Of a DNA stretch of 64,000 bases, positions 31,067 to 60,174 are shown piece by piece (position 1 is the first letter of the stretch; every line of letters begins with the position of its first letter). Made by a program: the position numbers and the translations under genes. The notes under the pieces are model-generated. The model did no database searches. It was not told where the DNA came from and saw only the letters and a list, made by a program, of their open reading frames with translations. This stretch comes from Paludibacteraceae bacterium. Lineage in GTDB: Bacteria; Bacteroidota; Bacteroidia; Bacteroidales; Paludibacteraceae. The DNA is taken from NCBI GenBank assembly GCA_017478725.1, contig JAFVDD010000006.1, forward strand, positions 1,169 to 65,168, given 5' to 3'.

Positions 31067-31074
31067 CAAAGTTA
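31067..31074 (-). promoter_or_regulatory. -7 box TAACTTTG for hup
   Basis: The plus strand reads CAAAGTTA, 66 nt upstream of the ATG at 31001. Confidence 0.5.
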
Positions 31075-31190
31075 CAAAATTTTATTTAATCTGCAAATAT
31101 TTTTTTCAAAAAAATGCGCTTTTTACTGAAAAATACTGTATTTTTGGTTAAAATGTACACTTTTTGTTCGCTTATATCAAAGAAAAGTAG

Positions 31191-31198
31191 TACTTTTG
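31191..31198 (+). promoter_or_regulatory. -7 box TACTTTTG, implying a near-leaderless rhomboid mRNA
   Basis: TAnnTTTG match ending 9 nt before the ATG at 31207. Confidence 0.45.
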
Positions 31199-31206
31199 CA
31201 CCTGTT

Positions 31207-42437: not shown

Positions 42438-42608
42438 GACCGCTTTTCTTCGTCTCCGAGCCGGATTTCCCACATTTTTTTACCTCTGTACCTGATTCGT
42501 TTTCAGCCGATTACAAGATGCTTATCGGGGGCATCTCAGAGTCATCTCGTGAGCGCATCGGAAGCAAGTCGGAGTCAAATAGTTTTTTTACCATCCCAAT
42601 TTTCATCA

Positions 42609-42638
42609 AAGAGACCTTCATTCGAGGGTCTCTTTTTT
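42609..42638 (+). terminator. rho-independent terminator
   Basis: An 8-bp stem (aagagacc ... ggtctctt) is followed by a T-run. It lies 170 nt after the stop at 42437. Confidence 0.7.
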
Positions 42639-42724
42639 ATCCCCGCATACCCATTTTGCAAAGTGAATATAGCAAAATAGATGATTTCCGTCAATTTTTA
42701 CACATAAGTCTCAAAAAAATAATG

Positions 42725-42732
42725 TATCTTTG
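42725..42732 (+). promoter_or_regulatory. -7 box TATCTTTG for the giant surface-protein gene
   Basis: TAnnTTTG match with an A-run upstream, 110 nt before the first ATG at 42842. Confidence 0.6.
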
Positions 42733-42763
42733 CACGCTATTTTTGATATGCGCGCCCAAAATT

Positions 42764-42808
42764 ACTAGTCAGCTAGCAAGCTAGAAACCTAGTCAGCTAG
42801 TCAACTAC
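42764..42808. repeat. period-8 CTAG array in the 5' leader of the giant gene
   Basis: CTAG occurs at 42765, 42773, 42781, 42789 and 42797, then CTAC at 42805. Confidence 0.95.
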
Positions 42809-42841
42809 CCGAGATAATAAATCACAACAATACCTGATACG

Positions 42842-45800
42842 ATGAAAAACAATTTACTTGATTGGAACGAAGAGCCCTTAAATTTACAGGGGGGGGTATT
42901 CGCAAAGAAAAACACAATGCGAGGTGAAACAAGCATGGGAGTTTCCGCAGTCTGCGCAACCTCTGCGCAACCTCTGCTGAAATACGCGGCATGCCTGTTG
43001 GCTGTGCTATGCCTCGGAGTAGGACAGGTTTGGGGACAGACGCTGGTGGAAACAGACAATATGGAGACTTCTTCTGGAACAGGTACGTCAATGACTGTAA
43101 GTGGCTTTAATCGCAATAGCAGTTGTGACCAGATTTCTCAATCTACAGAGGCAAGAACTGGTACTTACTCAATGAAGACAGAGAAAAATGGAAACGGTGA
43201 GGTCAATGTAAAAACCTCGAACGCTTCTATATCTGTAGCAAAAAGTGAGTATTTATATTGTATAGGCTGGGCGAAAATGGAAAGTAGCGATGTACCCACC
43301 ACTCCTAATGCCAATATTTATGCCCAAGCAAATAGTTATATAGGGGGGAATGGAAAAGGAGACTCAGTCCGTTTAAATAATAGTACATGGCGTCGTTTTA
43401 CATCAAGCAAGAAAGCAAGTAATGCAGTATCGAATGCATCTGTTTTGCTATTGCGTAAACACGGAAGCAAATTGGCAATTCTTTTTGACGATGTTGTAAT
43501 CTATACATCCTCCAATGCTTCTGTTGATATAACTGCTCCTACAGCCGCTTCATCTGCAAGTGCAACGACAAGTAGTATAGATTGGACTTGTGGTTCGGAT
43601 GATAATACAGGTATTCAAAATACATTGATTTGGAGACGCACAAGTAGTTCTGCAGATGATCTTACATTAAATGACCAGGGTGTATATGCTGCAAGTGCTA
43701 CCGACCAAAGCGGTCACTGGACTTGCGTGAGTGCTACGGTAGGAGCAGCAGCAACGAGTTATGCAGGCACATTCTCTTCTGGCGACCGCTATGCCATTGT
43801 TCACAGAGACTTGGCTTACAACTATTCATCGCCAACTTATGTGTCTATCCCTGCCGCTGCTCCTTCAAATACGTATTACTATCGCGGGACGGATAACTCT
43901 TGGGGGGCAACGGCGATGACACCAAGCGAGGGAGGAACATATGAGTATATTGCCTCAACAGCTACAACCAACCAGTTTAAAATAGCACTTTCTGAGTCGG
44001 GATGGGATTACAATCATAATTACAATTGGTCCGGCTTCTTTATGACAGACCAGAATATTAATTTGGGCGACTATAATAGTGACGACTGTTATATTTGGGA
44101 TGCACCATCGAGTTACTATATCATAGTATTCAAACCAAGCACAGCGGTTAATAGTTCGTCTAATCCGCATATCTGCGTATCGAGAACCTTACCGGACGAC
44201 AGCCCTTCCGGTTTGGCAGAAACCAAGACGGTTTATCTGGATCCAGACGTATGGGAAGCAGGTGGTGCGAAATATGCTGTATGCTATGTAGAGCATAATG
44301 GTGAATGGTCCGGTTTTATGACTGCCAGTCCGTGCTTTGACGGCGTGTACCAAACCACTATTCCGGTATGGGTTAGTAATGTGGAGATTGTTCGTTTCAA
44401 CTCAACAGCCACAGAAAGTGAAATCAGTTATGATGGCGGCAAATGTTGGAACTATTCCGGTCACCTCAGTTCGATGCCTTCGGGTGCCGCACGATTTACC
44501 GTTGCTCAAACCGGCGGAACATGGAATGACTTGAATACCTCTAACTGGTCAACGCCCTCCATTCCGACCTACACAATCAATTATGCGAAAGGAACAGTGC
44601 CTTCCGGCGGTGGTTCCATCAGTGGCAGCAAGAGCGATGAGAGCAAGACTTGCGGCGTGGATTTCACTTTGCCTAATAGTACCGTTTTCACCATTACCGG
44701 TTACACACAAACCGGTTGGGCAACATCATCCGGCGGAAGCAAGGCATATGAGCTTGGCGGCAGTTATACAGGAAATGCCAACCAAACGTTCTATCCGTTT
44801 TGGACGGCCAACAATTATACCTTGACATGGATAACGGACGGCGATGCGTTGACCGGCAGTTATACAACAGGCACGGTAGCTTTCGGTACTGCAATCACCG
44901 CACCAAACACCCCGACCAAGACAGGATATAATTTTGCGGGTTGGGATGTAACACCGGCTTCGACCATGCCTGCGGATAATACAACCTATACGGCTACTTG
45001 GACTGCCAAGACCACATCGCTCACGCTCAACCCGAACACCGATAATCACGGAACTGGTAGCAACGTAGCCGTTACAGCCACCTACGCGGCTGTACTGCCG
45101 TCCTTCACCAAAGCCACACCGGCTGAAGGCTATGTGTTGGAGGGTTATTACACCACCGCTTCGGGCGAAGGCACAAAGATTATCAATGCCGACGGAACAC
45201 TCGTTGCCAGTACTGACTATACCTCTGACGATAGCAAGTGGAACAGCGAAATAGCTTCACTCACCTTGCATGCACGATATGATGAAATTGCGTATTGTAC
45301 AACCCTTAATCCTGCTACTTCCGGTTCTTCTCCTACGGCTAAATACGATGAGATAAACATGCAAACCGGCAGCACAGGAGGATCGATTGTTACTGCCGGA
45401 GCAAAGAGCTCTTATAGCGAATCATTTTCTTACACGACGAACGGTCTTAAGTTTAATAAAGGTGGAGCCGACTCAGTCCGTGTTATTCTGGAGAACAATA
45501 TGCGGGCAGGAACCGTGCTCACGTTTGTCATAAACAATGAAACTGGTAGCAAAAGCCAAGGTTTGTACTTAAAGAACTTGAGCAAGACTACAAAAAAGGA
45601 TATGATTCGTCCCGGAACCGGAACGGGAGATACCACCTATGTCTATACTGTAGTGGCAGAGGACGGCTTAGCCGGAACTAACCAATTCATTCTAAGCCGA
45701 GCCTCCTCTTCTGCAGCTCTCAAATCGCTTAAGGTGCATAACTGCGGTAGTGCAGCAACAACCTACAATGTGACGCACACACTGAGTCACGTAACAAAGA

Positions 45801-48800
45801 ATAGTGGTGCTACTTCTGCGCTTGTAGGTGCCAATTACACAGCGGTTTTTACCGATGACATGGGCTTCGATTTGCCTTCAACTATCACAGTAGAGGTGAA
45901 TGGAGAGGAGAAGACGGTTAATACTCACTACACATGGAATCAAGAAACAGGAACAGTAGTCATCTATGGCGCATATGTGACGGATGATATCGAAATCACC
46001 ATCACCGGAGTGGATGAGGGCTATACCATCACCAACGGCAGTCCTTCCGGTGGTAGCATTGCTATCACCTTTAATGATGAAGCGGTCACTAAAGCACAGG
46101 AAAATGACCAAGTGAATATTGTGGCCACACCAAGTACCGGCTATAGTTTCAGCAGCTGGAGTATCTACAAAACAGGCGATGCCGGTACAACTGTGTCGCC
46201 TAACGCATCAACGGCTTCTACCTATTTCACCATGCCTGCCTATGGCGTGACGGTGGATGCAACGTTTACCGCCATCAACTACGCCATTACACACGCCGCT
46301 GCCGACAACGGCACCTATACTGTCCAAGTGGCGAGCGGCGACCCTGTATCCGAAGGAACAGGCGTGAACGCCAATTATGGTCAGACAATCACGCTGGCTG
46401 CTACACCGGGAAGCGGCTATGTGCTTGATCACTGGACAGTGACAGAGACCGTAAGCGGCGATCCCATATCGGTCACCAACGCCACGCTGGAGACTGCTAC
46501 GTTCACCATGCCGGCTGTGGCTGTAACGATAGTGCCGACATTCAAAGCCACGCCTAACATTTATTACTACAAGGATGCGACACGCTATGTCTCTTCCACG
46601 TATAAGAATCCGGAAGGAGGCACCGCGGGCAGTGGCGACAACAAAAACCTGACTACTCCGTGGAAGATGTGCGATGCCTGCGTCGCAGGTGTGGACAGCG
46701 TGGTTGTGACGAATGGTCAGTATGACGGCAAGGGCAATTACATGGACGCCTATATCAAACTGGGTATAGGTGGCAATGCTACAAGCAAGAACATCATCTT
46801 TGGAATCAAGAACGGTTATACGGCTTCTTCAATCAACCTCAAGATAGGCGGCTATAGTGCTAACCCGACAGTGACACTGAAAAAACTGACAAGCGGAAGC
46901 TTGGGCGATGCAATCGCTTATACCGGCACGATAGGTGGAGTGGCTACGAAAGAGAATGACTTCAGCGCTATTACATGGAGCAATCAAGCAGCCGGTGTGT
47001 ATGTACTCAATGTAAGTTCCAAGAACTCCTATATCTCAGAAATAGATATCCAAACCACGCCGCTCAACTACACCGTCACCCTCAACGCCAACGATGGTAC
47101 AATCAACGCCGGCAATGTGACGAGTTACACGTACGGCACGGGCGCAACCCTGCCGACCGATGTGACGAAGGATAATTACACCTTCGGCGGCTGGTACGAG
47201 GCAAGCGATTTCAGCGGAAGCGCGGTCACTACTATCTCTACCACCGACTACGGCAATAAGACCTATTACGCCAAATGGTATGCCAGTGACTACTCCTATA
47301 CTCCTACTCAGTCGAGCGGCACGCTGGCAGAGGGAGAAGTGGCTGTCACTTCTACGAACGGCGTACTGAAATATACGCCGTCAGCAGGAGCCGGCTCTCC
47401 GTCTATGTACTACGAAAGTTTCGGTAGTCCTTCACGCAACGGTTTGCGCTTCAACGGAAGCGGGCAATGTATGGCTACTATCTATCTGCAAAAGAACATG
47501 CAGGCGGGAACCATCATTACCGCTACTATTGCATCTGTAAGTAGTGATAAGGAATGCGGATTAGAACTCTGCACTACCGGTAGTGAGACAGTGACCACAT
47601 GGTCATGGACGCCGGTTGAGAATGCAGAGGAACATACGTTCACATATACCGTGACGGCAGAGGATGATTTGGCAGGAACTAATGTGTTCCGGTTGAAACG
47701 TCACAATGCAGATATACGTATCATTTCCCTCATCGTTGCCAACTGCAGCAACACGGAGGCTACTTGTACAGTGACCTACCACAGCAATGGCGCTACGTCG
47801 GGCAGCGCACCGGATGCTGCCAACTACCTCACGGGCACCGATGTGATAGTGAAGGACAACACCGGTCTGCTGCAAGCGGACGGTAATCTGGTCTTTGCCG
47901 GTTGGGCGACATCGCTTGACCGCGCCAATGCCGGTACGGTGGACTACAATCCTGCTGCCGGCGCAACGATAGAGACCATAACGGCAGATGTCAACCTCTA
48001 TCCGGTTTGGAAGACAGGATACTACTTTATTTCGCTGGCAGGTTATAGCGCAAACGGCACACTGAATACAACGGATTTTACCACCCCCAAATCCATCATA
48101 ACGGACAAAAGACGTACCGTGAACGAAGTAACGTTTAGCACCAGTGTGTTTAGAATGAGTAAAACGCCTAATGACGGTAATGTAGAGCAGACATTTGCAG
48201 GAACAAACCTGGCGGATGGTAAGAGTTGCTTCATATACGATACCAAGACTACCCAAACAGATATTTCTATCTATGTGTATAACGACGATGAGTCCAATGC
48301 GATACCTATCTGCTACCGCGTATTGAAAGAAGGAGATATTCAGGATGTAGTCCAGGTGGACATCCCAGCTAATAGCGGCATGGTGGTGAATATCCCTACT
48401 ATCACGCATACCAAAGGAACGCGTGTGCTCTTTGGTGCCGGTACAAGGAATGGTTCCGACTACGGAAAAATCAATTTCACTCAAGTCAGAGCCATCGAAA
48501 CAGGTATCGCTGTGCCACAAGCGGGTGAGGCTGGTTTCGAACTGGCCGTACCCGGACGTTTTACGGCTTCAAAAGATGCAGCAAGTTCGATTGACGGCTT
48601 GACGTGTATTCCTAATGATAATGTACATATCATTGACGGTAAGAAAAATACGATTCCGTTGACCGGCGCACAGGATGTAGAGGCAACGCAATACATCAGT
48701 TTCACTACATCCGGTTCTGTACAATTGCAAGTTACGCCAAAGAATGCGCAAGACCGCGTCACATTCTATGTGAAGAAAGACAGCCGTACGTTTACTTCGT

Positions 48801-51800
48801 CAGACACCCCGTATGGTAAGCGAAATACCATTACTTCCGTCAATCTTCCTGAAGCAGGCACATGGTATATCCTATCCGGTGAAAGTGCTTCGACGAAAGA
48901 TATAGTCATTACCAAGATAGCCTTTGTAGCCGCGCCGGTGATTACGTACGACGCCAACGGCGGTACGGGCGAAATGAGCACAAGTACCTGTAATGCTGCG
49001 GCAAATAGTTTCACACCGCCGACCGGCTATTCGTTCGCCGGTTGGAACACGGCGGCCGACGGAAGCGGCACGGCTTATGCCGTCGGCGACGAGACACTCA
49101 CCGACCTCACCCTCTATGCCCAATGGAGTGTGAACTCCTACACTATCACCCTCGACAAGAACGGCGGCAGTACAGACGGAACGGCAACGGTGAGTTACGG
49201 TGGCGCACGTGCTACGGTGAGCGCAGCACCGACCTATAGCGGCTATGAAGTGACAGGCTATTTCACGGAAGCTGCGGGAGGCATAAAAGTGCTGAATGCA
49301 GACGGTTCGTCCGCCGATAATAACGTAACAGGTTATTTCACAGACAGCGTATGGACCAAGACGGCGGATTGCACATTATTTGCGCATTGGGGTGTGACAC
49401 CTACCGCTGAGTACCTCTATCGTGCAAAGAGCAATTTATCGGGATGGGAAAGTACGACATATCCTTTATCCTCTGCAACAGCGGAAACGTGGCAGTTTGA
49501 GTGTAAATGGCCAAGCCGGATGTTCGCCATCGAACAGTTTGAGGTGCCCGACTTCGCGACTGCGAAGACGTTGACGCTGACCCTGACGCTGACGACCAAA
49601 GGTGCGAACGGAAAAATGGGTGTATGGTGTTATCCGCATGAGATACCTACCAGCTATTCGGACGACTATGCTTCGTTCTTCACACAGGTAGAAGAAGTGA
49701 CGGGCGTAGCCGTCAACAGCACGAGCGGAGCGTTCGCGCATCAGTTGGCGGTGAGCGACTGTAGTAATGCCACAGGTCGCACATGGACACTCACGATGAA
49801 TGCCGGTTCTATCACACCGGTGGGCTACAAACCCGACGGAACAACGGCTATCGTGCAGTTGCTGGTATCGTCCTACACCCCTGCTATGGAAACACAGATG
49901 AAGTTCTATACCAACAACTCCGCCAACACGATGGCTACGCGTCCGAAACTGTCGGTAGCGTATTACAGCGGTGATGTTGCGTATCCGAAGGCAGAGATCA
50001 ACTATCGCACGAATACAGGAGGTACCAAATGGAGTTTTGTGAAAGAGAACGATGACTATGACAACTTCGAAACCAACGCCGACGCGCAGATATTCACGGT
50101 AGAGCAGTTTGTGATAGAAAACTATAGTCCTGACCGCAAATATACGCTGACGTTAAGCAAGCACGCCGACCCTGTGCAGACGATTGCTGTATGGGACTTC
50201 CCGTACGTGTTGCCTATAAGCACAGAGGTGGGATGCAGTAGTCTGGTAGCGGATATAGAGAGCGTGACGGGAGTAGATTTGTCCGCAGGCTCCTATACCT
50301 ATTCGGGTCAGATAGCTGCCGTCGCCTGTACGGACAACAAGTGGACTTTCACCGTTCCGGGCTATAAGCTGACACCTGTTTCCAAAGACGGGAATAACAC
50401 TGCGGTGGTGAACCTGTTGTTGACCAGTAGCAGCAAGGCAACGTATAAGACCAACCATACGGACAATGCCGACGGCGTGAAACCAACGCTCGCTTATACA
50501 AGCACCTATCCTGTGCGTATTGACGGCGGAGATTACTACTACGACCTCAAGACTGCTTATGATGCGGCAGCGGCGAACGATGTCATCTATATCTGTCAAG
50601 ATTTCGAGCAAACGGGTGAAGGTTCTGGGACTCTGATTACGATAGAGAAAGCGCTGACGATAGCCGGTGAGAATGGTGTGAAAACCATTACGCGCGGATA
50701 TAGGAAAGACCAACAGCTCATTCAGGTGAAGAGCAACTGTACATTCCGCGACCTGATCTTCGAAGGCAAAGAGGCTGATAGATCAGGTGGCCGTGACGTG
50801 ATAGAGGTATATAATAAAAGTACCAACACCGATGTGACGTTTGACAACGTGACCTTCAGCAAGTTCAAGAATGATGCTACCAACCGCGGTATTGTTTCTG
50901 TGAACAACCATGCAAAAGTGACATTCAACGATGTGATGTTTGTAGGCTGCGTCGTGCCCGATACTTGCGGTGATATAGGTGTGCTCGGAAGTTCACGCAA
51001 TATAGTAGTAACAGGAACGCTCAATGCACCGGAAGGCGTATATCTGGAGAAGGACAAACGGGTAGAAAATAGCAGCGCAACCTATAGTGTAATAACGCCG
51101 ATACATGTGTCGTATGACTACAGGCATGGCTATTCTGCCATACTGACGGTAGGAGATGAAGCGACATACAACCGGTTCTCGGTAGCCAACACAGGATGGT
51201 ATAAGATGTTCGTTCATCCCGGAGGCAAGAACGAACTGGCTGTCAAGCATGGTACCTATATCACGTTCGACAAGAACGGCGGTGACGCTGATGGTAGTGC
51301 TGAAGTTGCAGCAGATAGCACGGACACCTACGTGACACCTATCACTCATGTTACGCGCGTCGGTTACAACCTCACGGGCTATTACACGGCTCCCTCTGCC
51401 GGCACCAAGGTGCTGAACGCGGACGGTACGTATGCCGCCACCAATGTGACAGGGTATATCACCGACGGCAAGTGGACGCATGCCAATGTGACCCTGACCC
51501 TCTATGCCCAATGGACACCAGGCGAATTGACCTTCACCGGCGAAACGGACGCTCACTGGAGCACCGCCTCCAACTGGTCGCCGGCTATGCTGCCGACGAT
51601 AGAGCACGACGTAGTGATAGAGGCACCGGTGACGGTGGATATACCCGATGCCCGGGCTGCTTCTATTGCGCTCACCGGCTCTGCCACCATGACCGTCCAA
51701 GCCAACCAAGCTCTGGTGGTAGCAGGTACCATCACCAAGAGCGGTGCAGCTCCTACGGCGACGGATCTTCTGCTGGAGTCATCCGCGGCGGGCAACGCCA

Positions 51801-53035
51801 CGCTGATATTTGACAACTCCAACTCGGCTGCCGCCACCGTGGAGATGTACAGCAAGGCCTCGGCGGCTACTACACCCTGGTCGTGGCAGTATATAGGAGT
51901 GCCGTTCACCAGCGCCAATGCTGAACAGACCTACTATGGCGGATATATGTACGGCTGGAAAACCGATGGCTCGGGTTGGGAGACAGTTACCAGATCCACT
52001 ACCCTCAATGCCTTCACCGGTTATAGTATCTCTTATCCTGCCACCAGCCATACCTATTCAATGACCGGCACGCTGGCTCAGACGACGAGCAAGGACATCG
52101 CCGTCCCGGCAGGCAAGGATATGGTGGTAGGCAACAGCTGGACGGCGCCGATACAGATCAAGCAACTGCGTGACGATGACTTCACCAACCTGCTCAAGAA
52201 CATCTATCTCTACAACACCGGCATGGACTCCACGGGTACCGGCATTGAGGCAAGCAGCCGCTATGAGGCAGGCACCTACCTGACCATACCTATCTACTCA
52301 TCGCCCTACACAGGCGATAGTGTGATCAGTTCGTTGCAGGGCTTCTTCGTGACCAACACTTACGGCAGTGACGGTTCGCTGCACCTCAGCTATGACGACC
52401 ATGTGCGTCCGGCTGCCGGCAATAGCGTAGTAGCCGGACCGATGCATGCGCCCAGACGTATGCCTGCGGCGGAAGAGGCAAGTCCGGCAATCGTGAAACT
52501 CATCGCCGGCGGCAGCCGCTACGACGACCGTCTGGTGCTGCTGGAGCGTGGTGATTTCACCACCGGCTATGATGACGGTTGGGACGGCGAGAAATGGCCC
52601 GGAGGAGAAAACTCGCCTGCCCTCTACGCCACCCGTGCGGACGGTACGGCCGATGCGGTAAGCGCTATTCCCGAACTGGAAGGAACACCTCTCACCTTCC
52701 GCGCAGGCGAGGATGATGTATATACACTGCGTATGGAGTACAAGGCACGGGATGCGGAACCGCTCTACCTCTATGACACCTATATGAACGCGTACACACG
52801 CGTAGAGGACGGGGCAACCTATTCGTTCCTGACCTACGACAAGGATACGCATACACGCTTTATCCTCACGCGCTACAGGTCACCGCAAGTGGCTACCGGA
52901 GACGAAGCCGCCTCCGATGCCTCACGGAAGGGAAGAGCTACTAAGCTGATCATCGATCAGAAGCTTTATATCCTGCGCAACGGTGTCTTGTATGACGCTA
53001 CAGGCAAATGTGTGAAACAAGGGTTGAACCGGTAA
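42842..53035 (+). CDS. giant (3397-aa) secreted multidomain surface protein with CBM-like modules, Listeria-Bacteroides (InlB B-type) repeats, DNRLRE-like modules, a right-handed beta-helix and a conserved C-terminal tail
   Basis: Single uninterrupted 10.2-kb ORF. The signal-peptide h-region LLKYAACLLAVLCLGVGQVWG suggests the true start may be the ATG at 42917 or 42935. Repeated GY.F.GW....G......LYA.W modules occur at about 44570-45285, 47060-47280, 47760-48010, 48935-49395 and 51250-51525. A beta-helix-like segment lies at about 50510-51250. Domain names rest on motif recognition only. Confidence 0.85.
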   Translation: MKNNLLDWNEEPLNLQGGVFAKKNTMRGETSMGVSAVCATSAQPLLKYAACLLAVLCLGVGQVWGQTLVETDNMETSSGTGTSMTVSGFNRNSSCDQISQSTEARTGTYSMKTEKNGNGEVNVKTSNASISVAKSEYLYCIGWAKMESSDVPTTPNANIYAQANSYIGGNGKGDSVRLNNSTWRRFTSSKKASNAVSNASVLLLRKHGSKLAILFDDVVIYTSSNASVDITAPTAASSASATTSSIDWTCGSDDNTGIQNTLIWRRTSSSADDLTLNDQGVYAASATDQSGHWTCVSATVGAAATSYAGTFSSGDRYAIVHRDLAYNYSSPTYVSIPAAAPSNTYYYRGTDNSWGATAMTPSEGGTYEYIASTATTNQFKIALSESGWDYNHNYNWSGFFMTDQNINLGDYNSDDCYIWDAPSSYYIIVFKPSTAVNSSSNPHICVSRTLPDDSPSGLAETKTVYLDPDVWEAGGAKYAVCYVEHNGEWSGFMTASPCFDGVYQTTIPVWVSNVEIVRFNSTATESEISYDGGKCWNYSGHLSSMPSGAARFTVAQTGGTWNDLNTSNWSTPSIPTYTINYAKGTVPSGGGSISGSKSDESKTCGVDFTLPNSTVFTITGYTQTGWATSSGGSKAYELGGSYTGNANQTFYPFWTANNYTLTWITDGDALTGSYTTGTVAFGTAITAPNTPTKTGYNFAGWDVTPASTMPADNTTYTATWTAKTTSLTLNPNTDNHGTGSNVAVTATYAAVLPSFTKATPAEGYVLEGYYTTASGEGTKIINADGTLVASTDYTSDDSKWNSEIASLTLHARYDEIAYCTTLNPATSGSSPTAKYDEINMQTGSTGGSIVTAGAKSSYSESFSYTTNGLKFNKGGADSVRVILENNMRAGTVLTFVINNETGSKSQGLYLKNLSKTTKKDMIRPGTGTGDTTYVYTVVAEDGLAGTNQFILSRASSSAALKSLKVHNCGSAATTYNVTHTLSHVTKNSGATSALVGANYTAVFTDDMGFDLPSTITVEVNGEEKTVNTHYTWNQETGTVVIYGAYVTDDIEITITGVDEGYTITNGSPSGGSIAITFNDEAVTKAQENDQVNIVATPSTGYSFSSWSIYKTGDAGTTVSPNASTASTYFTMPAYGVTVDATFTAINYAITHAAADNGTYTVQVASGDPVSEGTGVNANYGQTITLAATPGSGYVLDHWTVTETVSGDPISVTNATLETATFTMPAVAVTIVPTFKATPNIYYYKDATRYVSSTYKNPEGGTAGSGDNKNLTTPWKMCDACVAGVDSVVVTNGQYDGKGNYMDAYIKLGIGGNATSKNIIFGIKNGYTASSINLKIGGYSANPTVTLKKLTSGSLGDAIAYTGTIGGVATKENDFSAITWSNQAAGVYVLNVSSKNSYISEIDIQTTPLNYTVTLNANDGTINAGNVTSYTYGTGATLPTDVTKDNYTFGGWYEASDFSGSAVTTISTTDYGNKTYYAKWYASDYSYTPTQSSGTLAEGEVAVTSTNGVLKYTPSAGAGSPSMYYESFGSPSRNGLRFNGSGQCMATIYLQKNMQAGTIITATIASVSSDKECGLELCTTGSETVTTWSWTPVENAEEHTFTYTVTAEDDLAGTNVFRLKRHNADIRIISLIVANCSNTEATCTVTYHSNGATSGSAPDAANYLTGTDVIVKDNTGLLQADGNLVFAGWATSLDRANAGTVDYNPAAGATIETITADVNLYPVWKTGYYFISLAGYSANGTLNTTDFTTPKSIITDKRRTVNEVTFSTSVFRMSKTPNDGNVEQTFAGTNLADGKSCFIYDTKTTQTDISIYVYNDDESNAIPICYRVLKEGDIQDVVQVDIPANSGMVVNIPTITHTKGTRVLFGAGTRNGSDYGKINFTQVRAIETGIAVPQAGEAGFELAVPGRFTASKDAASSIDGLTCIPNDNVHIIDGKKNTIPLTGAQDVEATQYISFTTSGSVQLQVTPKNAQDRVTFYVKKDSRTFTSSDTPYGKRNTITSVNLPEAGTWYILSGESASTKDIVITKIAFVAAPVITYDANGGTGEMSTSTCNAAANSFTPPTGYSFAGWNTAADGSGTAYAVGDETLTDLTLYAQWSVNSYTITLDKNGGSTDGTATVSYGGARATVSAAPTYSGYEVTGYFTEAAGGIKVLNADGSSADNNVTGYFTDSVWTKTADCTLFAHWGVTPTAEYLYRAKSNLSGWESTTYPLSSATAETWQFECKWPSRMFAIEQFEVPDFATAKTLTLTLTLTTKGANGKMGVWCYPHEIPTSYSDDYASFFTQVEEVTGVAVNSTSGAFAHQLAVSDCSNATGRTWTLTMNAGSITPVGYKPDGTTAIVQLLVSSYTPAMETQMKFYTNNSANTMATRPKLSVAYYSGDVAYPKAEINYRTNTGGTKWSFVKENDDYDNFETNADAQIFTVEQFVIENYSPDRKYTLTLSKHADPVQTIAVWDFPYVLPISTEVGCSSLVADIESVTGVDLSAGSYTYSGQIAAVACTDNKWTFTVPGYKLTPVSKDGNNTAVVNLLLTSSSKATYKTNHTDNADGVKPTLAYTSTYPVRIDGGDYYYDLKTAYDAAAANDVIYICQDFEQTGEGSGTLITIEKALTIAGENGVKTITRGYRKDQQLIQVKSNCTFRDLIFEGKEADRSGGRDVIEVYNKSTNTDVTFDNVTFSKFKNDATNRGIVSVNNHAKVTFNDVMFVGCVVPDTCGDIGVLGSSRNIVVTGTLNAPEGVYLEKDKRVENSSATYSVITPIHVSYDYRHGYSAILTVGDEATYNRFSVANTGWYKMFVHPGGKNELAVKHGTYITFDKNGGDADGSAEVAADSTDTYVTPITHVTRVGYNLTGYYTAPSAGTKVLNADGTYAATNVTGYITDGKWTHANVTLTLYAQWTPGELTFTGETDAHWSTASNWSPAMLPTIEHDVVIEAPVTVDIPDARAASIALTGSATMTVQANQALVVAGTITKSGAAPTATDLLLESSAAGNATLIFDNSNSAAATVEMYSKASAATTPWSWQYIGVPFTSANAEQTYYGGYMYGWKTDGSGWETVTRSTTLNAFTGYSISYPATSHTYSMTGTLAQTTSKDIAVPAGKDMVVGNSWTAPIQIKQLRDDDFTNLLKNIYLYNTGMDSTGTGIEASSRYEAGTYLTIPIYSSPYTGDSVISSLQGFFVTNTYGSDGSLHLSYDDHVRPAAGNSVVAGPMHAPRRMPAAEEASPAIVKLIAGGSRYDDRLVLLERGDFTTGYDDGWDGEKWPGGENSPALYATRADGTADAVSAIPELEGTPLTFRAGEDDVYTLRMEYKARDAEPLYLYDTYMNAYTRVEDGATYSFLTYDKDTHTRFILTRYRSPQVATGDEAASDASRKGRATKLIIDQKLYILRNGVLYDATGKCVKQGLNR

Positions 53036-53661: not shown

Positions 53662-55152
53662 ATGAAGCGATTATTTATCCTGCTGCCTTTGGCGTGTCTG
53701 CTGTTCGCCTCCTGCAGCCCTTACCAGCCTGCGCGGTGCTATAGCCGCGAGATGATCAACGCCCGCATGACCGCGTGGTACAACAAGGACAACTGCGTAG
53801 GCTTTCCCAACGCCAACAGCACCAACGGTATCACCCTTCCCGAGAACGCTGCTACGTGGGACTATGTCTCCGGCGTGGTGGCCAAAGGTATATTGGATGT
53901 GTGGCAGTACTATCAGGATAGCGCATGGGCGGACGCGTGGTATATAGGTATCGCCCGGTGGGCGGACAGCCTGAATGAGGACGAACTGAACGAACTGGTG
54001 CGCGGCGGCATACTCGATGACCTCAACTGCGCCAAGGTCTTCATGGGCCTGTACGAGGGCGCCAAACCCGGCGGCAGGTTTGAGAACGCCGAACGGGCTG
54101 CGTATTACATGCAGCAGATGCAGCGAGCGGCACAGGGGTTGGCGGAGCACAAAGCCAAATACTCGATTCAACTACCCGCTACCGCGGATGGTGACGAGCC
54201 GGAGGTGAACGGCGGATGGATGCACAAGGCTACCGATAATCCCGAGAAAAGTTATTGGGGACAGATGTGGTGCGACGGAGCATACATGGGTCCCGCACTT
54301 TTGGCACAATTATTGCAATATGGTACATGTGAAGGCACGGGGCTGGGATGGAATGATGTAGTGAAACAGTTTACAGCCTCGTGGCCTTACCTTTGGGACG
54401 AAGAGAAACAACTCCCCTATCACGTCCTTTTCACCGATATTACTACCAATAGGAACGCGCGCACTATATACGAGTGCGGGCACGCATATCCGTGTCAACG
54501 GTCAACTGTCAACTGCCAACCATCAACTATTTACCACTCCGAGGAGTATTGGGGACGGGCGGCTGGATGGTATATCCTGGCGATGGTGGATGTGATGGAA
54601 GCGTATATGGATAATTGGAAGGCGCATGGCGAATGGACAAATGGCGAAAGCCTGCCTGAGAAGGCGGATTTCAATACGCTGCATGGGTATTTCACCAAAC
54701 TGGCTAACGGTCTGGTAGCCCGTCAGGACAAAGAGACCGGCTGCTGGTACCAGTTGTTGCAGTACGGTCCCGAGAAATGCGCCACGCAGGGGGTGGATGA
54801 CACCGGCTCGGAGAAATATACCAATGTAGCCGAAGGCGGCACGCAGTGCAACTATTTGGAGTCCTCGGCTACGTGCCTTATCACCGCCGCGCTGCTGAAG
54901 GCTACGCGTCTCGGATTGGGCGACTACGCCGAAGCAGGCAGACGCGGCTTTGAAGGCATACAGCGCACGTTTGTGCGCAACAACCTGACCATCACCTCCT
55001 CGTGCCAGTCGGCCGGCCTCAGCCATGACCGCAACGGCACCGCGGCGTATTACCTGATCGGCAAGGATGTGCCAATCCAGGACAACACCGAAGGCAAAGT
55101 CCTCGGCACCTATCTGATGGCCGCCGTGGAATATGAAAGAGCCTGCCACTGA
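53662..55152 (+). CDS. GH105/GH88-type unsaturated (rhamno)galacturonyl/glucuronyl hydrolase lipoprotein
   Basis: 496 aa with lipobox LLFASC. The motifs QMWCDGAYMG (the WxDGxYM type) and WGRAAGWY are hallmarks of the family. Confidence 0.75.
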   Translation: MKRLFILLPLACLLFASCSPYQPARCYSREMINARMTAWYNKDNCVGFPNANSTNGITLPENAATWDYVSGVVAKGILDVWQYYQDSAWADAWYIGIARWADSLNEDELNELVRGGILDDLNCAKVFMGLYEGAKPGGRFENAERAAYYMQQMQRAAQGLAEHKAKYSIQLPATADGDEPEVNGGWMHKATDNPEKSYWGQMWCDGAYMGPALLAQLLQYGTCEGTGLGWNDVVKQFTASWPYLWDEEKQLPYHVLFTDITTNRNARTIYECGHAYPCQRSTVNCQPSTIYHSEEYWGRAAGWYILAMVDVMEAYMDNWKAHGEWTNGESLPEKADFNTLHGYFTKLANGLVARQDKETGCWYQLLQYGPEKCATQGVDDTGSEKYTNVAEGGTQCNYLESSATCLITAALLKATRLGLGDYAEAGRRGFEGIQRTFVRNNLTITSSCQSAGLSHDRNGTAAYYLIGKDVPIQDNTEGKVLGTYLMAAVEYERACH

Positions 55153-55202: not shown

Positions 55203-55227
55203 CTCGCCTCAACGGGCGAGCCTTTTC
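55203..55227 (+). terminator. rho-independent terminator after the GH105 gene
   Basis: The stem ctcgcc-tcaacg-ggcgag is followed by CCTTTTC. Confidence 0.6.
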
Positions 55228-55230: not shown

Positions 55231-55251
55231 ACTAGTCAGCTAGTCAACTAA
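55231..55251. repeat. short period-8 CTAG array (CTAG, CTAG, CTAA)
   Basis: CTAG occurs at 55232 and 55240, and CTAA at 55248. The last unit is the stop codon of the minus-strand OMP gene. Confidence 0.9.
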
Positions 55252-57215
55252 AACCTGAACGTTGCTCCCACCAGGAAATTGATACCCTGGGAGGTGTAGC
55301 CGTAATAGATGTCGTTCTTGTAGTGAATGAAATTGTTCACTTGGGCAAAGAGCGTCAGGTTGGGCTTGGGCTCCGGGCGGAGCGGTAACTCCCCGCCCTC
55401 TGAGTGCTGATGGCTTACAGCTGAACGCTTACCTCCTACCCACATGTTATACTGCATGCCGAGATCCAACTCTACGGTAGGTTTGAGCAAGTGCTCGCCA
55501 TCCGTCGCCAGCGCCAGACGGCTGCCGGCAAAATGGTTGTCGGAATAGAGCGACCAGTGCTTGTCTATCTTCCCGTCCACGCGCAGGCCTAACTGCCAGT
55601 TGGCATGGTCATATACAGTGCGGCTGTTGTTGGCAAGAACATCGGTGAGTTCCGTGCAAGTGGAGGCGTACTGATAGCCGTTGTTCTCATAGCGCAGGGC
55701 ACGCCAGAAATAGTAGTCCCCGTACAGGTTGACGCGTACGATATCACGATAGTGGTAGTTGAACTGGGCTCCCACCTTTCCGCGGCTGTAGTCGCAATAG
55801 GTATAACTGAAATCGCCGGCATGCACAAAAGCATTGAACGCCGCTGGCATATAGCGTGCGCTGTCGGTCACGGCAATGAGGGTGGTGGTGTTCAGATAGA
55901 GAGCGTAGCCTCCGTGGAGCTCGATGAGCAGGTCGCGGTAGGGCCGTATATGGAAGCCCAGTTCGGCATCCACCGGCGTATGCGGCGCTGCGTGGTGGGA
56001 GATGATACCTGCATGGATAACACGGTAGCGGTTCTGCTCCATGAACGCCTGCAACGTACCCATGGCGTGGGAGCCGGTGGCGTCGGCATAGAGCGTGAGC
56101 CATTTCTTGGCTATCTGCGCCTCCAGATGCACATGAGGCGACGGGGCAAAACTGAGGTTGTTGACGCCGGAGAGGCTGTTCTGGCCGCGACCTATGTTCA
56201 TATCCAGATTGACGCCCACGTGGAGCTGCACGCGACGGCTGTTGTAGGCATAATAGGGTTCCAGACGGATATTATGGCGGCTGTTGTACATCGTGGAGGG
56301 AATAGTTGCCGCCAGATTGCCGTTCAGGCTGAGGAAATTGTTCTGCACATAGAGTACGGCTCCTACGTGGTGGAAATCACGGCTCCAGTCGAACGACGCA
56401 TGTGTACGTATCTGGTGCTCGGCTACGGCATTGGGTTTGGCAAAGAGCATATAGCCTGTCTGCACGCGGTACTGCACCTCCTGTTTGGCGTTGGAGCGGA
56501 CACCTATATAGGCCTCTGCGGTCCAGAGGGAGGTCTGGTCGGCAGGGGTGATAGTGCGCGGCTCGGGATAGAGCGTTTTGGTGCGATCCCATGCGCCGGC
56601 ACTGCCTTGTGCGTAGTCGTAGAAACGGCCGTATTTGTTGTAGAACACATTGCCGCCGTTGATGCCGAAATAGACGCTGCAAGCGGAGAACGGGTGGGAG
56701 AAATCAAAACCGAGCTTGGTTTTGCTGAGTGCTCTGAGTCCCCATTGGGCACGATGATGGGCATACACGTCCAGTATGGAGCGTTTGCCGTCGTCCAGAC
56801 GGTAGCCGAAATCAAAGAGCGTGTTCGTGTGTCCCAGTCCGCCGCGTACGTAGCCGTTGTAGGACTGGCCTTCGCCGAATCGTGTGGGCTGAGAGAGCAG
56901 TGGCTGCAAGCCGGTTTCTGTTTTCACCTCTACGGCATAGTTGGAATAGCTGACCTCAACCGGCTCAATAGTTGTTTCCACGATAGCGGGTTTGGTAGCC
57001 ACCTTGCCGGCTGCCCGGATGACAGGCTGGAAATCACGCTCTACCGTCACGGAGCGGTTGAGTGCACTGTCGCTCTGCGCCGAAGCAGGAGTAAGGAATA
57101 AGGACAATGGAATAAGGACAAAAATGTATCGGCTGATAGTATTCGCTCTTTTGTCTTTCAGCGAAGCGGTCTTTATTCTTTCAGCGAAGCGGTCTGTATT
57201 ACTCGTCATCATCAT
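55248..57215 (-). CDS. large outer-membrane beta-barrel protein (putative porin-like; no TonB plug recognised)
   Basis: 655 aa with a signal peptide ending PASAQS, alternating aromatic/Gly-rich strands throughout, and the C-terminal OMP signature GATFRF. It overlaps the upstream TPR gene by 17 nt. Confidence 0.65.
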   Translation of the reverse strand: MMMTSNTDRFAERIKTASLKDKRANTISRYIFVLIPLSLFLTPASAQSDSALNRSVTVERDFQPVIRAAGKVATKPAIVETTIEPVEVSYSNYAVEVKTETGLQPLLSQPTRFGEGQSYNGYVRGGLGHTNTLFDFGYRLDDGKRSILDVYAHHRAQWGLRALSKTKLGFDFSHPFSACSVYFGINGGNVFYNKYGRFYDYAQGSAGAWDRTKTLYPEPRTITPADQTSLWTAEAYIGVRSNAKQEVQYRVQTGYMLFAKPNAVAEHQIRTHASFDWSRDFHHVGAVLYVQNNFLSLNGNLAATIPSTMYNSRHNIRLEPYYAYNSRRVQLHVGVNLDMNIGRGQNSLSGVNNLSFAPSPHVHLEAQIAKKWLTLYADATGSHAMGTLQAFMEQNRYRVIHAGIISHHAAPHTPVDAELGFHIRPYRDLLIELHGGYALYLNTTTLIAVTDSARYMPAAFNAFVHAGDFSYTYCDYSRGKVGAQFNYHYRDIVRVNLYGDYYFWRALRYENNGYQYASTCTELTDVLANNSRTVYDHANWQLGLRVDGKIDKHWSLYSDNHFAGSRLALATDGEHLLKPTVELDLGMQYNMWVGGKRSAVSHQHSEGGELPLRPEPKPNLTLFAQVNNFIHYKNDIYYGYTSQGINFLVGATFRF

Positions 57216-60174
57216 TTACCTCCTTTTCTGCGGGTTGTTCTATCTTGTCCAGTTTGGCGAGACGGTCGCTGATGAGTGCGGGTATATCATCGCCGGTGAT
57301 GGTGTAGTTCTGCTGTAGTGCGAGCAGGTACTGGCGCGCCTGGAATGTCTCGCCGCGGCGGGTGTATATATCGCTCAGCAGGATGAGTGCGCGTGCGAGC
57401 CAGTATTGCTGGCTGGTGCTCATGCCGGTGAACGACATCACCTCTGCTTCCGCCTCGTCAAGCTGACCTGACTCAAACCGGCTTTGTGCCAGCAGGTATT
57501 TGGCTTCGGCGCCCTGCGCTGTGCGTACCTCGCTGGACAGCTGTTTGAGGTCCGGCTGGGCTTTCTCCCATTCGCCTTGAGCCGTATAGGCTTTGGCGCG
57601 GCAGTAGAGCGCTTCGTTGCGCACTGCCTCGTCCGGCTGGTCGTTCAGCAGTTGGCCGGCTATGTCGATAGTAGCCGTATGGCGTCCCAGCAGTGATGAG
57701 CAGCGCAGGATACCTACGCGGGCCACGATACTGTTCTCGCGGGTGGACGCCAGTGCGTTCATGCGATAGAAAGCCTCCAGCGCCGCTGCGTAGTCTCCGC
57801 GGTCGTAGTAGATCTCTGCCATACGTGTGGCTGCTTCCTCCTGATAGGGATTGGCTGCGAGATCAGCCAGCTGGCTGTATTGCTCCAATGCTTCCGCATT
57901 TCTGCCCAGGCGGTAATACGAGTCGGCAAGATAGTAGAGAGCCGTGGTGCAGTATCTGCCTCCGGCACAGTAACGCCGTATATATTCGCTCAGCGGCTCC
58001 GTGGCTTTCTGATATGCCGCCTGCATATACTGCATCTCTGCGGCGGCAAAGAGCAGGCTGTCCTCGCGTGTAGTGACGGTCATATTCAGTTTGGCGAGAT
58101 TCTTGGTATAGGCGAGGTACTCGTCTATACGGTTTTGCTCCACATACAGGGCCTGCAGGGTCTCCAGCGCCGTGTAGGCCTCCTCTGTAGCCGGATATTT
58201 CTCTATGGTCTGGCGGTAGGCGGCTATAGCCTGGTCGGTCTGGTTGAGGTTGCGGTAGAGCATTGCGCGCTCCAGCGAGGCCTTGCGGGCAAGGGCGGAG
58301 TGGGGATAGGTGTTGAGCAGTTGCTCATAGGTGGTGATAGCTCCGCGCTCGTCGTTGAGCTGAAGTTGCGCACGCGCTGTCTCATACATACCGTCGTCGG
58401 CATAGTCGGATTTGGGATAACGGGTGGTCAGGGTGCGCAGCGCTGCTATCTTGTCGTTGTATTGGCGCAGCAGACCCAGTGCATAGCCGCGCTGGAAGAG
58501 CGCATAGTCGGCTCCTACGGCCTGGAGGTTGCTTACCTGGGTGTAATAGCTGATAGCCTGTTTGAAATCACGGGCGTTGAAATAGCAATCGCCTATACGG
58601 TTGAGCGCATCGGCATAAGTGGCATCGCCCGTATCGGCTCCGTCTATATAGGTGGTGAAAGCTGTGCGTGCCTGATCGTAATGGTTTTGCGAGAAAGCGC
58701 AGTAGCCTTCCAGGTAGCGCGCTATCCGGTAGTTGGCCGATTGCTTGGCGTCATGGCGGGCGAAGAAGGACTGCAGGTCGCTCTCGCATGCGCTGTAGTC
58801 ACGCAGACGGTATTCCGCTTCGGCACGTATATAGAGTGCCTCGGTGGTGTAGCGGTCGCTCTCGTTACGGTGGCTGACCACTTCGCCTGCGCGGTCAATA
58901 GCCTGCTGCATCTTGCCTTGCAGAAATCCGTCGGCTGCCAGTTGGTAGCGCAGATACTGCTTGGTCTCCAGCATCTTGGGAGTGGGGTCGGAGATACTGT
59001 CCAGCGTGGCAATGGCTGCAGCGTAGTTCTTGCTTTGCATCAGCGCCGAACTCAGCAACTGGTAGATATTGCTCTCGTATTTGGAATCAGGAAAAGCATG
59101 CAGGAAATCATTGAACGCCTTGACCGACTCGCCCAAAGCCGACGAAGAACGATAGGAGCAGAGGGTGTAGTTGTAGGCAGCCTCCTCGGTGATAGCAGGC
59201 GTGAGGCGGTAGCTGGCGGCAGCCTGATACCACAGCTGTGCCTGCTCGGGTTGGTTCATATGGATATAGGCATGACCGATGGTCAGGCAGGCCGACTCGC
59301 TCAGCGTGTCCGGCTGCTGTTTGATCAGTTTCAAATGGCGGATGGCGTCCGGATAGCGGTTCAGTCTGTACTCGGCATGACCGAGCAGGTACAGGTCCTC
59401 GCGCCGCAACTCCTCCTTGCGCTCCTGAGCGTCCTGTTCGTATTGCTGCAACTGCTCAGCCGCCTCTTCGTAGCGCCCGTCGCGATAGCGTATCTCGCCC
59501 AGCATACGGTGCAGCTCGCCGGATAAATCATTGTCCGGCTGGGTGCGCAGCAGCATGACAATACGCTCCTCCGCCTCATCATAGCGTCCCTGGATATAGT
59601 CGGTCTGCGCGATGAAATAGGGCACAGTCTTGGCGTATTCGGGCATCTGCTCCAGACGCTTGAGTGAAGGCAAAGCCTTGTCGTACTCGCCCGTTTTGTA
59701 CATACAATAGGCGTAGTAATAGTCGGCGCGGGTGGAATAGCGGTTGTCGGATTTGGACAGATGACCGAAATAGATAGCCGCCCGCCCGTAGTCCTGCAGC
59801 ATCAGATAGGAGTAGCCGCGATAGAAGGAATAGTCGTGCTGGTGAGCCCGTCCGAGTGCGCTGATGTCAATAGGCTCCAGTACCTTGAGGGCTTGTTTGT
59901 AATGACCGCGCTCTACCTGCAGTATTCCCTGCATCAGATTGACTTCGTCGGCAAACGTGGTGTAGGGAAACTCCTGCATATAGGCCTTCAAATCGCGCTG
60001 GAGCACCGAGGTGTTGCCGCTACGGCTGTCAAAACGCTCTGCCAGTGCGTTGTAGCGCACTTCCATCTCCGTCGTCTGCGCGAAAGCTCCGCTTAATGGC
60101 AAAAGATAAAAGACAATCGACAGGACGATATGACGACATGTCGATATGTCGAAAAACTTAGTTAGTAATGTCAT
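57199..60174 (-). CDS. 991-aa secreted multi-TPR protein (YbgF/CpoB-like repeats)
   Basis: A signal peptide is followed by TPR-type A..Y.....Y..A periodicity along the whole length. Its ATG overlaps the potD stop (ATGA at 60171-60174). Confidence 0.7.
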   Translation of the reverse strand: MTLLTKFFDISTCRHIVLSIVFYLLPLSGAFAQTTEMEVRYNALAERFDSRSGNTSVLQRDLKAYMQEFPYTTFADEVNLMQGILQVERGHYKQALKVLEPIDISALGRAHQHDYSFYRGYSYLMLQDYGRAAIYFGHLSKSDNRYSTRADYYYAYCMYKTGEYDKALPSLKRLEQMPEYAKTVPYFIAQTDYIQGRYDEAEERIVMLLRTQPDNDLSGELHRMLGEIRYRDGRYEEAAEQLQQYEQDAQERKEELRREDLYLLGHAEYRLNRYPDAIRHLKLIKQQPDTLSESACLTIGHAYIHMNQPEQAQLWYQAAASYRLTPAITEEAAYNYTLCSYRSSSALGESVKAFNDFLHAFPDSKYESNIYQLLSSALMQSKNYAAAIATLDSISDPTPKMLETKQYLRYQLAADGFLQGKMQQAIDRAGEVVSHRNESDRYTTEALYIRAEAEYRLRDYSACESDLQSFFARHDAKQSANYRIARYLEGYCAFSQNHYDQARTAFTTYIDGADTGDATYADALNRIGDCYFNARDFKQAISYYTQVSNLQAVGADYALFQRGYALGLLRQYNDKIAALRTLTTRYPKSDYADDGMYETARAQLQLNDERGAITTYEQLLNTYPHSALARKASLERAMLYRNLNQTDQAIAAYRQTIEKYPATEEAYTALETLQALYVEQNRIDEYLAYTKNLAKLNMTVTTREDSLLFAAAEMQYMQAAYQKATEPLSEYIRRYCAGGRYCTTALYYLADSYYRLGRNAEALEQYSQLADLAANPYQEEAATRMAEIYYDRGDYAAALEAFYRMNALASTRENSIVARVGILRCSSLLGRHTATIDIAGQLLNDQPDEAVRNEALYCRAKAYTAQGEWEKAQPDLKQLSSEVRTAQGAEAKYLLAQSRFESGQLDEAEAEVMSFTGMSTSQQYWLARALILLSDIYTRRGETFQARQYLLALQQNYTITGDDIPALISDRLAKLDKIEQPAEKEVNDDDE
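60118..60157. repeat. period-8 array, CGACATGN family (5 units), inside the 5' end of the TPR gene
   Basis: The units read cgacagga cgatatga cgacatgt cgatatgt cgaaaaac. They are translated as FFDISTCRHIVLS. Confidence 0.9.

Follow-up and report, generated by a model that had tools for sequence, protein, structure and literature searches.

In the rumen, Bacteroidales that lack polysaccharide-utilisation loci of the classical kind are believed to depend on large multi-modular proteins exported by the secretion system of type IX (T9SS), and counts of such cargo are usually restricted to proteins with a match to the canonical sorting-domain models. The closest published precedent for the locus described here is the carbohydrate-active enzymes (CAZymes) of multi-modular build that the rumen bacterium 'Candidatus Paraporphyromonas polyenzymogenes' exports via the T9SS (Naas et al. 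2018; PMC5831590). We analysed 64,000 nt of DNA (the window) from a Paludibacteraceae bacterium (assembly GCA_017478725.1, contig JAFVDD010000006.1, positions 1,169 to 65,168 of the forward strand). One open reading frame (ORF) of 10,194 nt in this window, at 42842-53035 on the forward strand, encodes a secreted giant protein, probably exposed at the cell surface, of this uncultured bacterium, whose bacterial family occurs mostly in the rumen and herbivore gut. We predict, with a probability of roughly 0.55, that this giant is a T9SS-linked, surface-displayed, hypervariable glycan-binding protein of the bacterium, with a small membrane partner.

The course of events that we propose is as follows. 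After Sec export, the giant would cross the outer membrane via the type IX system of its own genome. Its C-terminal unit would stay by the cell and, together with the small partner, act as an export or anchoring platform. The variable passenger would project outward and bind plant polysaccharides, most likely anionic ones of the pectin type, and the unsaturated-uronyl-hydrolase-like enzyme encoded next door would be part of the same pathway. The locus would be fixed in the chromosome, with the passenger rebuilt by module exchange among family members; such exchange is proposed to have produced both the mosaic structure of the protein and the AT-rich 5' end of its gene.

C-terminal unit, short tail and partner protein

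A C-terminal region of about 500 residues had been noted in the preliminary description of this DNA, which was made from the sequence alone, and our analysis revealed that it is the conserved part of the protein. The unit (aa 2893-3365; residues are counted from the first ATG) carries the motifs WQYIG.PF, GNSWTAPI, LQGFFV, MHAP.R, DDRL.LLER.DF..G.D.GWDG, and RF.LTR. A protein database search returned 38 relatives, all unannotated, and a scan of one genome per species found the unit at 73 loci, with more than one locus in several genomes. Nearly all of these stem from Paludibacteraceae or uncultured Bacteroidales sampled in rumen, goat, sheep, yak, deer, horse, and pig. The unit always sits at the C-terminus of its host protein, whose length ranges from about 800 residues to over 3,800 in the loci and reaches 5,785 in the protein library. 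Neither Pfam nor NCBIfam has a model that matches the unit. Its AlphaFold model (predicted local distance difference test score, pLDDT, 81.5) shows a short cap like a solenoid, then two beta-sandwiches, and a meander of four strands at the end; a whole-chain Foldseek search of the PDB gave nothing at E<=0.001, the three-domain model being a poor whole-chain query. A literature search found no description of the unit, of the short tail that follows it, or of the partner protein.

In the relatives, two endings were found after the unit. Five of them (L027, L053, L059, L061, and L069) end in a full T9SS type A sorting domain, with TIGR04183 scores of 25-34 bits against a cutoff of 23. The other ending, which the giant has, is a tail of about 30 residues with the consensus K-x-[IL]-I-x-d-x-K-l-Y-I-l-x-n-G-x-l-Y-D-A-t-G-K-x-V-K. 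This tail matches no model, and the last part of the giant gave no Pfam match, PF18962 included, at E<=10. When compared by hhalign, the short tail fell on the first half of the type A domain (95.9% with the shared preceding motif; 58%, P 1e-4, for the tail by itself), and lYDAtGk.V was aligned to vYDaaGrL in the middle of the domain. Since only the first half of the domain is covered, the tail looks like an abridged sorting domain without the last 36 or so residues. It is strongly conserved and forms the extreme C-terminus of more than 60 proteins. It ends, among others, several smaller proteins in related loci, P0043 (with an F5/8 type C domain), the stand-alone proteins P0039-P0042 described below, and a secreted GDSL esterase encoded elsewhere in the window (Table 1). 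As the esterase shares the tail, it is a general tag in the organism.

The T9SS genes found in the 64-kb window are porW and porX, the core genes porK/L/M/N and sov lying outside it; from these two genes it follows that the organism has a type IX system. At its other end, the giant was described earlier as starting with a signal peptide, and hydropathy analysis together with reading of the sequence agrees, as the hydropathy maximum of the whole protein is at aa 45-63, followed by VWGQ with the predicted cut between G and Q. Taken together, the signal peptide, PorW and PorX, the TIGR04183 domain of unit-sharing relatives, the alignment of the tail to the C-terminal sorting domain (CTD), and the occurrence of the tail on unrelated secreted proteins point to secretion of the giant by the T9SS.

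Directly after the giant gene lies the gene for the partner, here called o200. Its product is predicted to begin with a signal peptide and to continue with a disordered region rich in Ser and Gly; a P[LIV]GDA motif, a transmembrane helix, and an RRK cluster make up its C-terminus. Searches of Pfam and NCBIfam gave no meaningful match (one spurious NCBIfam hit, E 0.07). In a profile search, 67 related loci had a member of the o200 family immediately after the C-terminal-unit gene, with either type of tail. Moreover, the pairwise identities of the unit and of the partner are correlated (r = 0.60, Mantel p about 0.001). Nine loci contain two pairs; between their paralogues, identity is 27-37% for the unit and 16-28% for the partner, whereas in eight of the nine, identity to counterparts in other genomes reaches 47-91% (unit) and 48-100% (partner); the exception is L069, at 35-38% and 29-32%. 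As paralogous pairs are closer to counterparts elsewhere than to each other, the two genes duplicate together and diverge together. Two successive giant-partner pairs were seen in L012, L034, L036, L037, L040, L043, L047, L054, L055, L063, and L069.

These features raise another explanation, namely that tail, unit, and partner make up a sorting or anchoring route of their own, either independent of the T9SS or forming a separate class of its cargo. The partner would then be a dedicated chaperone or anchor, fixed in the inner membrane by its C-terminus and facing the periplasm, or its P[LIV]GDA-helix-RRK end would be a sorting signal of the exosortase/rhombosortase type. Such a route would fit the strong conservation of a tail at the extreme C-terminus that lacks the half of the CTD needed by canonical models, the recurrence of the partner and its co-diversification with the unit, the absence of Pfam or NCBIfam families for either of them, and the order of motif, hydrophobic helix, and basic cluster at the partner's C-terminus. 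However, the partner also follows relatives with a full type A CTD and is thus not specific to the short tail, and the short tail also occurs on proteins without unit and without partner gene. In addition, T9SS genes are present in the window, and no sortase-like gene was seen next to the loci in the gene maps of related loci. We therefore regard a separate route as unlikely, and favour export of the giant by the T9SS.

Passenger modules and the glycan theme

The passenger of about 2,800 residues is a series of unrelated beta-sandwich modules spaced by InlB B-repeats (Table 1). Among the modules, aa 2185-2805 form one evolutionary unit, in which the tandem modules B1 and B2 are always accompanied by a third, BH. 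An exhaustive HMMER search of 1.84 billion representative proteins gave 56 relatives, so that the unit is rare; non-exhaustive searches had given four. Some relatives are themselves giants, P0045 (5785 aa) and P0046 (5331 aa), both also with module A and the C-terminal unit, and others are stand-alone secreted proteins of 650-870 aa.

B1 and B2 had been called DNRLRE/CBM96-like, CBM standing for carbohydrate-binding module. At the level of fold and context this still stands, whereas membership of the family does not. In an AlphaFold model of aa 2185-2805, built on five sequences, pLDDT was 80-90 in B1/B2, and Foldseek matched the B modules to the alginate-binding CBM 7vbo (TM 0.53) and the chondroitin-sulfate-binding CBM 8wab (TM 0.60), with a probability of 1.00 each. 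By sequence, aa 2185-2555 matched neither CBM96/DNRLRE nor any other entry of Pfam or NCBIfam, and a profile of the B region gave 0 matches to PDB sequences. For BH, the earlier reading as a right-handed beta-helix is plausible but weakly supported. The model of BH (pLDDT 50-70) has short regular strands, the whole model resembles the beta-helix catalytic domains of glycoside hydrolase (GH) family GH87 (E 7e-4 to 3e-3, probability 0.77-0.87), and the homologues P0049 and P0052 show weak DUF4957 matches, in P0049 within the BH region; BH itself has no Pfam match.

The surroundings of the unit in other genomes concern sugars as well. The stand-alone protein P0042 is encoded together with GH97, a GH51-type arabinofuranosidase, and araA/B/D, in a cluster of the arabinan/pectin type, and P0049 also bears an alginate-lyase domain. 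In the window itself, o200 is followed by a gene for a GH88/GH105-like lipoprotein (PF07470, 124.8 bits against a cutoff of 26.6; YteR-type structures 4wu0, E 2e-16, and 1nc5, E 2e-8), and a gene of this kind follows about 35 giant-o200 pairs. Together with the precedent of the rumen T9SS CAZymes, the CBM96-like fold, the P0042 cluster, the lyase domain of P0049, and this neighbour suggest that the giant may bind glycans.

Some further observations were made on these proteins. The GH88-like protein exceeds the solved YteR-type enzymes in length by about 120 residues, and aligns in three separate stretches, from which we conclude that it carries insertions. In L005, L014, and L018 (about 12000-15200), two GH88/GH105-like paralogues stand in tandem after the giant-partner pair. 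The stand-alone proteins P0040-P0042, which like P0039 carry B1-B2-BH and end in the short tail, have a domain of about 150 residues ahead of the tail (columns 705-900 of alignment A3) with the motifs Y.TFC.PF, EAG.PYL, YLGA.NQLY, and G.RAYF. Compared by eye only, these resemble the motifs of domain 2 of the C-terminal unit (WQYIG.PF, GY.I, LQGFFV), which hints at a common 'pre-tail' domain.

As for the repeats, a Pfam search with the whole protein detected Flg_new (PF09479) in six stretches (E 1.4e-39, 134.5 bits against a cutoff of 27) and Flg_new_2 (PF18998) in three (56.6 bits against 23.6). The corresponding repeat model TIGR02543 (28.3 bits) was the sole NCBIfam match of the whole giant. 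By jackhmmer the blocks are at aa 577-795, about 1061-1223, 1410-1478, 1642-1712 (weak), 2033-2168, and 2806-2875. InlB B-repeats are thus present in about ten copies above the Pfam cutoffs and in six blocks, where at least five blocks had been expected from the sequence.

Two internal duplications had also been proposed, and chunk-wise BLASTP recovered both. The two copies of module A (aa 852-999 and 1517-1662) are 39% identical (E 9e-20), and B1 and B2 (aa 2218-2371 and 2408-2551) are 29% identical (E 1.5e-16), the latter pair being extended by a second alignment (aa 2187-2295 and 2382-2484, E 6e-09). The end motifs quoted for these modules were located at 45659-45742, 47660-47743, 49940-49963, and 50477-50497, which shows that the module coordinates given earlier were right to about 100 nt. 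Repeats in the DNA of the giant gene do not exceed 33 nt. Both duplications are therefore old, and a recent internal duplication was ruled out.

Homologues of module A were found in L023, L019, L009, and P0045. Those of N1 lie near the N-terminus of giants in L012 and L043, and at aa 344-587 of a giant in L010; when read by eye, N1 has motifs that may be CBM4_9/22-like and FN3-like. Ten non-repeat segments gave only noise in Pfam at E<=10 (Herpes_MCP, Y_Y_Y, BNR, and similar), and profiles of modules A, N1, N2, and B-BH matched no PDB sequence. For the N-terminal modules N1 and N2, where jelly-roll or CBM-like modules had been proposed earlier, neither search thus gave a match.

Table 1. Features of the giant locus and of related genes in the window
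Feature	Position	Strand	Evidence or remark
PorW/SprE gene (T9SS)	11989-14664	-	NF052312, 641.7 bits against a cutoff of 250
Secreted GDSL esterase gene, 663 aa	16977-18968	+	ends in the short tail, KVFENGILYIVRPDGTRYTIDGNQVR; weak similarity to pectin acetylesterase PaeY
PorX response regulator gene (T9SS)	32949-34532	-	NF052313, 740.2 bits against a cutoff of 300
Terminator-like hairpin and U-run	42608-42641	+	ends upstream Zn-ribbon unit; 12-bp stem, -17.4 kcal/mol, z = -5.55 against shuffles
Candidate promoter TATCTTTG	42725-42732	+	match to the -7 consensus TAnnTTTG
G8 homopolymer	42881-42888	+	between first in-frame ATG (42842) and M32 start; read from sequence
Predicted Sec signal peptide	42935-43036	+	core aa 45-63, predicted cleavage after aa 65; hydropathy
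Module N1 (aa 67-345)	43040-43876	+	lowest GC3 of the gene (0.305)
Module N2 (aa 346-576)	43877-44569	+	two aromatic-rich sub-modules; homologues in L041, L069
Flg_new block 1 (aa 577-795)	44570-45226	+	three repeats; Pfam, jackhmmer
Module A copy 1 (aa 846-1005)	45377-45856	+	end DGLAGTNQFILSR...LKSLKVHNC; BLASTP
Flg_new_2 block	45857-46573	+	three divergent InlB B-repeats; Pfam
Module M3 (aa 1245-1408)	46574-47065	+	one homologue, in L071
Flg_new repeat (aa 1410-1478)	47069-47275	+	best Pfam stretch; Pfam, jackhmmer
Module A copy 2 (aa 1513-1665)	47378-47836	+	end DDLAGTNVFRLKR...IISLIVANC; BLASTP
Module M4 (aa 1756-2003)	48107-48850	+	no homologue among the related loci compared
Flg_new block (aa 2033-2168)	48938-49345	+	two repeats; jackhmmer
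Modules B1 (aa 2187-2377) and B2 (aa 2378-2552)	49400-50497	+	tandem beta-sandwiches, CBM96-like fold; BLASTP, AlphaFold2, Foldseek
Module BH (aa 2553-2803)	50498-51250	+	probable right-handed beta-helix, fold weakly supported
Flg_new repeat (aa 2806-2875)	51257-51466	+	jackhmmer
Conserved C-terminal unit	51518-52936	+	alignment, AlphaFold2, database and genome scans
Short C-terminal tail ATKLIIDQKLYILRNGVLYDATGKCVKQGLNR	52937-53032	+	resembles first half of T9SS type A sorting domain
Partner gene o200, 200 aa	53052-53654	+	starts 17 nt after the giant gene
GH88/GH105 (YteR)-like lipoprotein gene	53662-55152	+	8 nt after o200; lipobox-like N-terminus
Terminator-like hairpin	55203-55220	+	after the GH88-like gene, facing the convergent gene
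655-aa protein gene	55248-57215	-	no Pfam/NCBIfam family; convergent to the giant operon
991-aa tetratricopeptide repeat (TPR) protein gene	57199-60174	-	YbgF/BamD-like repeats, weak PorW-like stretch; convergent to the giant operon

A fixed locus with an exchanged passenger

The giant gene lies in the order DUF5606, NIF3, zinc ribbon, giant, o200, GH88-like, followed on the opposite strand by the genes for the 655-aa protein and the 991-aa TPR protein and by potD/C/B. This order recurs in other Paludibacteraceae genomes, on both sides of the giant in L007, upstream in L011, and downstream in more than 15 loci. It follows that the gene is no insertion between the pot operon and the Nif3/zinc-ribbon pair, a possibility raised before as one to be checked. 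More than 15 related genomes have the 655-aa and 991-aa TPR genes at this place. In L007, the positional orthologue, identity to the window is 57-94% for the flanking proteins and 49% for the C-terminal unit, and Flg_new repeats are all that the passengers share. Other giants contain modules N1, N2, A, M3, and B-BH again, arranged differently and in other copy numbers. Hence the passenger is replaced wholesale between related species at a fixed chromosomal position.

The base composition changes along the gene. GC is 0.40-0.46 over 42800-44600, compared to about 0.55 in the flanks, and GC at third codon positions (GC3) is 0.305 in N1, 0.44-0.62 in most middle modules, 0.68 in one Flg_new repeat, and 0.667 in the C-terminal unit (last 500 codons), with 0.63-0.76 in the flanking genes. 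The AT-rich 5' break of the preliminary description is thus real. Its interpretation as the mark of a single acquisition is not supported, as the gradient is family-wide: GC3 of the passenger is lower than that of the C-terminal unit in 46 of 52 relatives. Two explanations fit this, either passenger modules that are AT-richer and exchanged on a 3' platform that stays in place, or a passenger that evolves faster and under less constraint. Stretches of low GC (0.38-0.43) also occur at 1-2400, 9900-10500, and 30600-31200 of the window, and low GC is consequently not unique to the 5' end of this gene.

The integrity of the ORF bears on the same question. The 3397 codons from the first ATG run without a stop, in line with the single giant ORF reported earlier, and the cluster of this protein at 90% identity has four members, from independent assemblies, that are 99.97-100% identical over their full overlap: P0044 and P0098 from ENA, MBR1877573.1 from an NCBI metagenome-assembled genome, and P0099 from Logan, which holds all 3397 aa. 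With four near-identical assemblies, an assembly chimera or a frameshift, both of which had been named as possible flaws, is very unlikely. A recent horizontal insertion or a chimera would account for the low GC3 of the first module relative to the flanking genes. Given the recurrent gene order from DUF5606 to potDCB, the gradient across the family, the agreement of the assemblies, and the host-like composition of the 3' unit, we consider this explanation largely refuted and very improbable.

On an ENA metagenome scaffold of 111,870 bp, which also carries the zinc-ribbon neighbour, the gene caller placed the start at M32 (42935), giving 3366 aa, and this is the likely translation start. The G8 tract between the first ATG and M32 may be a slipped-strand site that acts on start choice or expression. 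Since terminator-like hairpins bound the region on both sides, the giant, o200, and GH88-like genes look like one transcription unit. TAnnTTTG is the -7 promoter consensus of Bacteroidetes, and one candidate lies upstream of the giant; a scan for sigma-70 promoters gave 16 sites, with 16.6 expected. An 88-aa ORF upstream (42518-42784) was ruled out as a gene, as it overlaps the terminator and promoter region and has no family match.

The complete replacement of the passenger between close relatives at a fixed locus, and the tandem arrays of paralogues, are also what would be seen if the giant were a general adhesin or protective coat, used in attachment to cells, host, or particles or as a phage decoy, whose modules have no sugar specificity and vary under pressure from phage or host. 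InlB B-repeats are typical stalk elements of adhesins. Their presence in the giant, and the lack of a catalytic domain detected by Pfam, agree with such a function. The CBM96-like fold of the B modules argues otherwise, as do B-BH homologues that are fused to a lyase domain or encoded inside a sugar-utilisation cluster, and the GH88/GH105-like gene next door. On balance, an adhesin or coat without sugar specificity seems improbable to us, and we prefer the reading of the giant as a T9SS-linked glycan-binding protein.

Several points weigh against this preferred reading. The T9SS sorting models (TIGR04183, type B, and type C) gave no match at E<=1 to the giant or to its last 100 aa, and the tail does not extend into the C-terminal half of a type A CTD. 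In Porphyromonas gingivalis, this half is the part needed for secretion. As for glycans, Pfam detected no catalytic or carbohydrate-binding family by sequence in the non-repeat modules, so that the case for binding is built on gene context and a single fold match. About half of the related loci lack the GH88-like gene, and its linkage may in part be plain synteny. Finally, co-diversification of adjacent genes can come from co-inheritance, without physical interaction.

Significance and comparison with known systems

The giant family, with 73 loci in species-representative genomes and proteins of up to 5,785 residues, would escape canonical sorting-domain screens. Should the tail be a functional signal, predictions of the secretome for these fibre-degrading bacteria fall short. 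The B1-B2-BH unit and modules A, N1, N2, M3, and M4 are candidates for new carbohydrate-binding or carbohydrate-active families. More tentatively, and in our view less probably than the glycan-binding role itself, the C-terminal unit, the abridged CTD-like tail, and the C-tail-anchored partner might make up an undescribed export or anchoring cassette. This would be a further class of type IX cargo, comparable to the type B CTD with PorP, which displays exchangeable giant passengers at fixed loci in Paludibacteraceae. Such a cassette would be a natural scaffold for the display of very large modular passengers.

Compared with T9SS type A cargo, the giant likewise comes from Bacteroidales of the rumen and herbivore gut, combines a Sec signal peptide with a long multi-modular passenger containing modules of carbohydrate-binding type, and is encoded in a genome with T9SS genes; its unit-sharing relatives bear TIGR04183. 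In contrast to such cargo, the giant has no match to TIGR04183 or PF18962, only a tail of about 30 aa like the first half of the domain, and no recognised catalytic CAZyme domain, and it adds the conserved 500-aa unit before the tail and an obligate small partner gene, two features for which type A cargo offers no published counterpart. Because the sorting domain is the defining feature of type A cargo, we classify the giant as a variant that probably works like such cargo.

With the giant T9SS adhesins of the SprB/RemA type it shares the form of a giant repetitive surface protein with a dedicated small partner gene directly after it, and partner and C-terminal region diversify together. The SprB/RemA type has a type B CTD and a PorP/SprF partner, whereas the giant gave no match to TIGR04131 at E<=1 in NCBIfam, and its partner, which is not of barrel size, is no PorP/SprF beta-barrel but a disordered protein of 130-220 aa with one C-terminal helix. 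The organism is also not known to glide.

With CBM96/DNRLRE modules, the B modules share the beta-sandwich of 7vbo and 8wab, and P0049 pairs them with a polysaccharide lyase domain; they differ in being only 11-15% identical to these two structures and in matching no DNRLRE, NCBIfam, or Pfam entry. InlB B-repeats (PF09479/PF18998) above the Pfam cutoffs place the giant beside other proteins with such repeats. Unlike in Listeria InlB, they make up only about a fifth of the protein, serve as spacers, and occur without leucine-rich repeat or GW modules. Neither the size nor the repeats are new, and NCBI already lists MBR1877573.1 as 'InlB B-repeat-containing protein [Paludibacteraceae bacterium]'. 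The new elements are a C-terminal unit that no model covers, the obligate partner gene, and a tail that looks like an abridged sorting domain and recurs on other secreted proteins.

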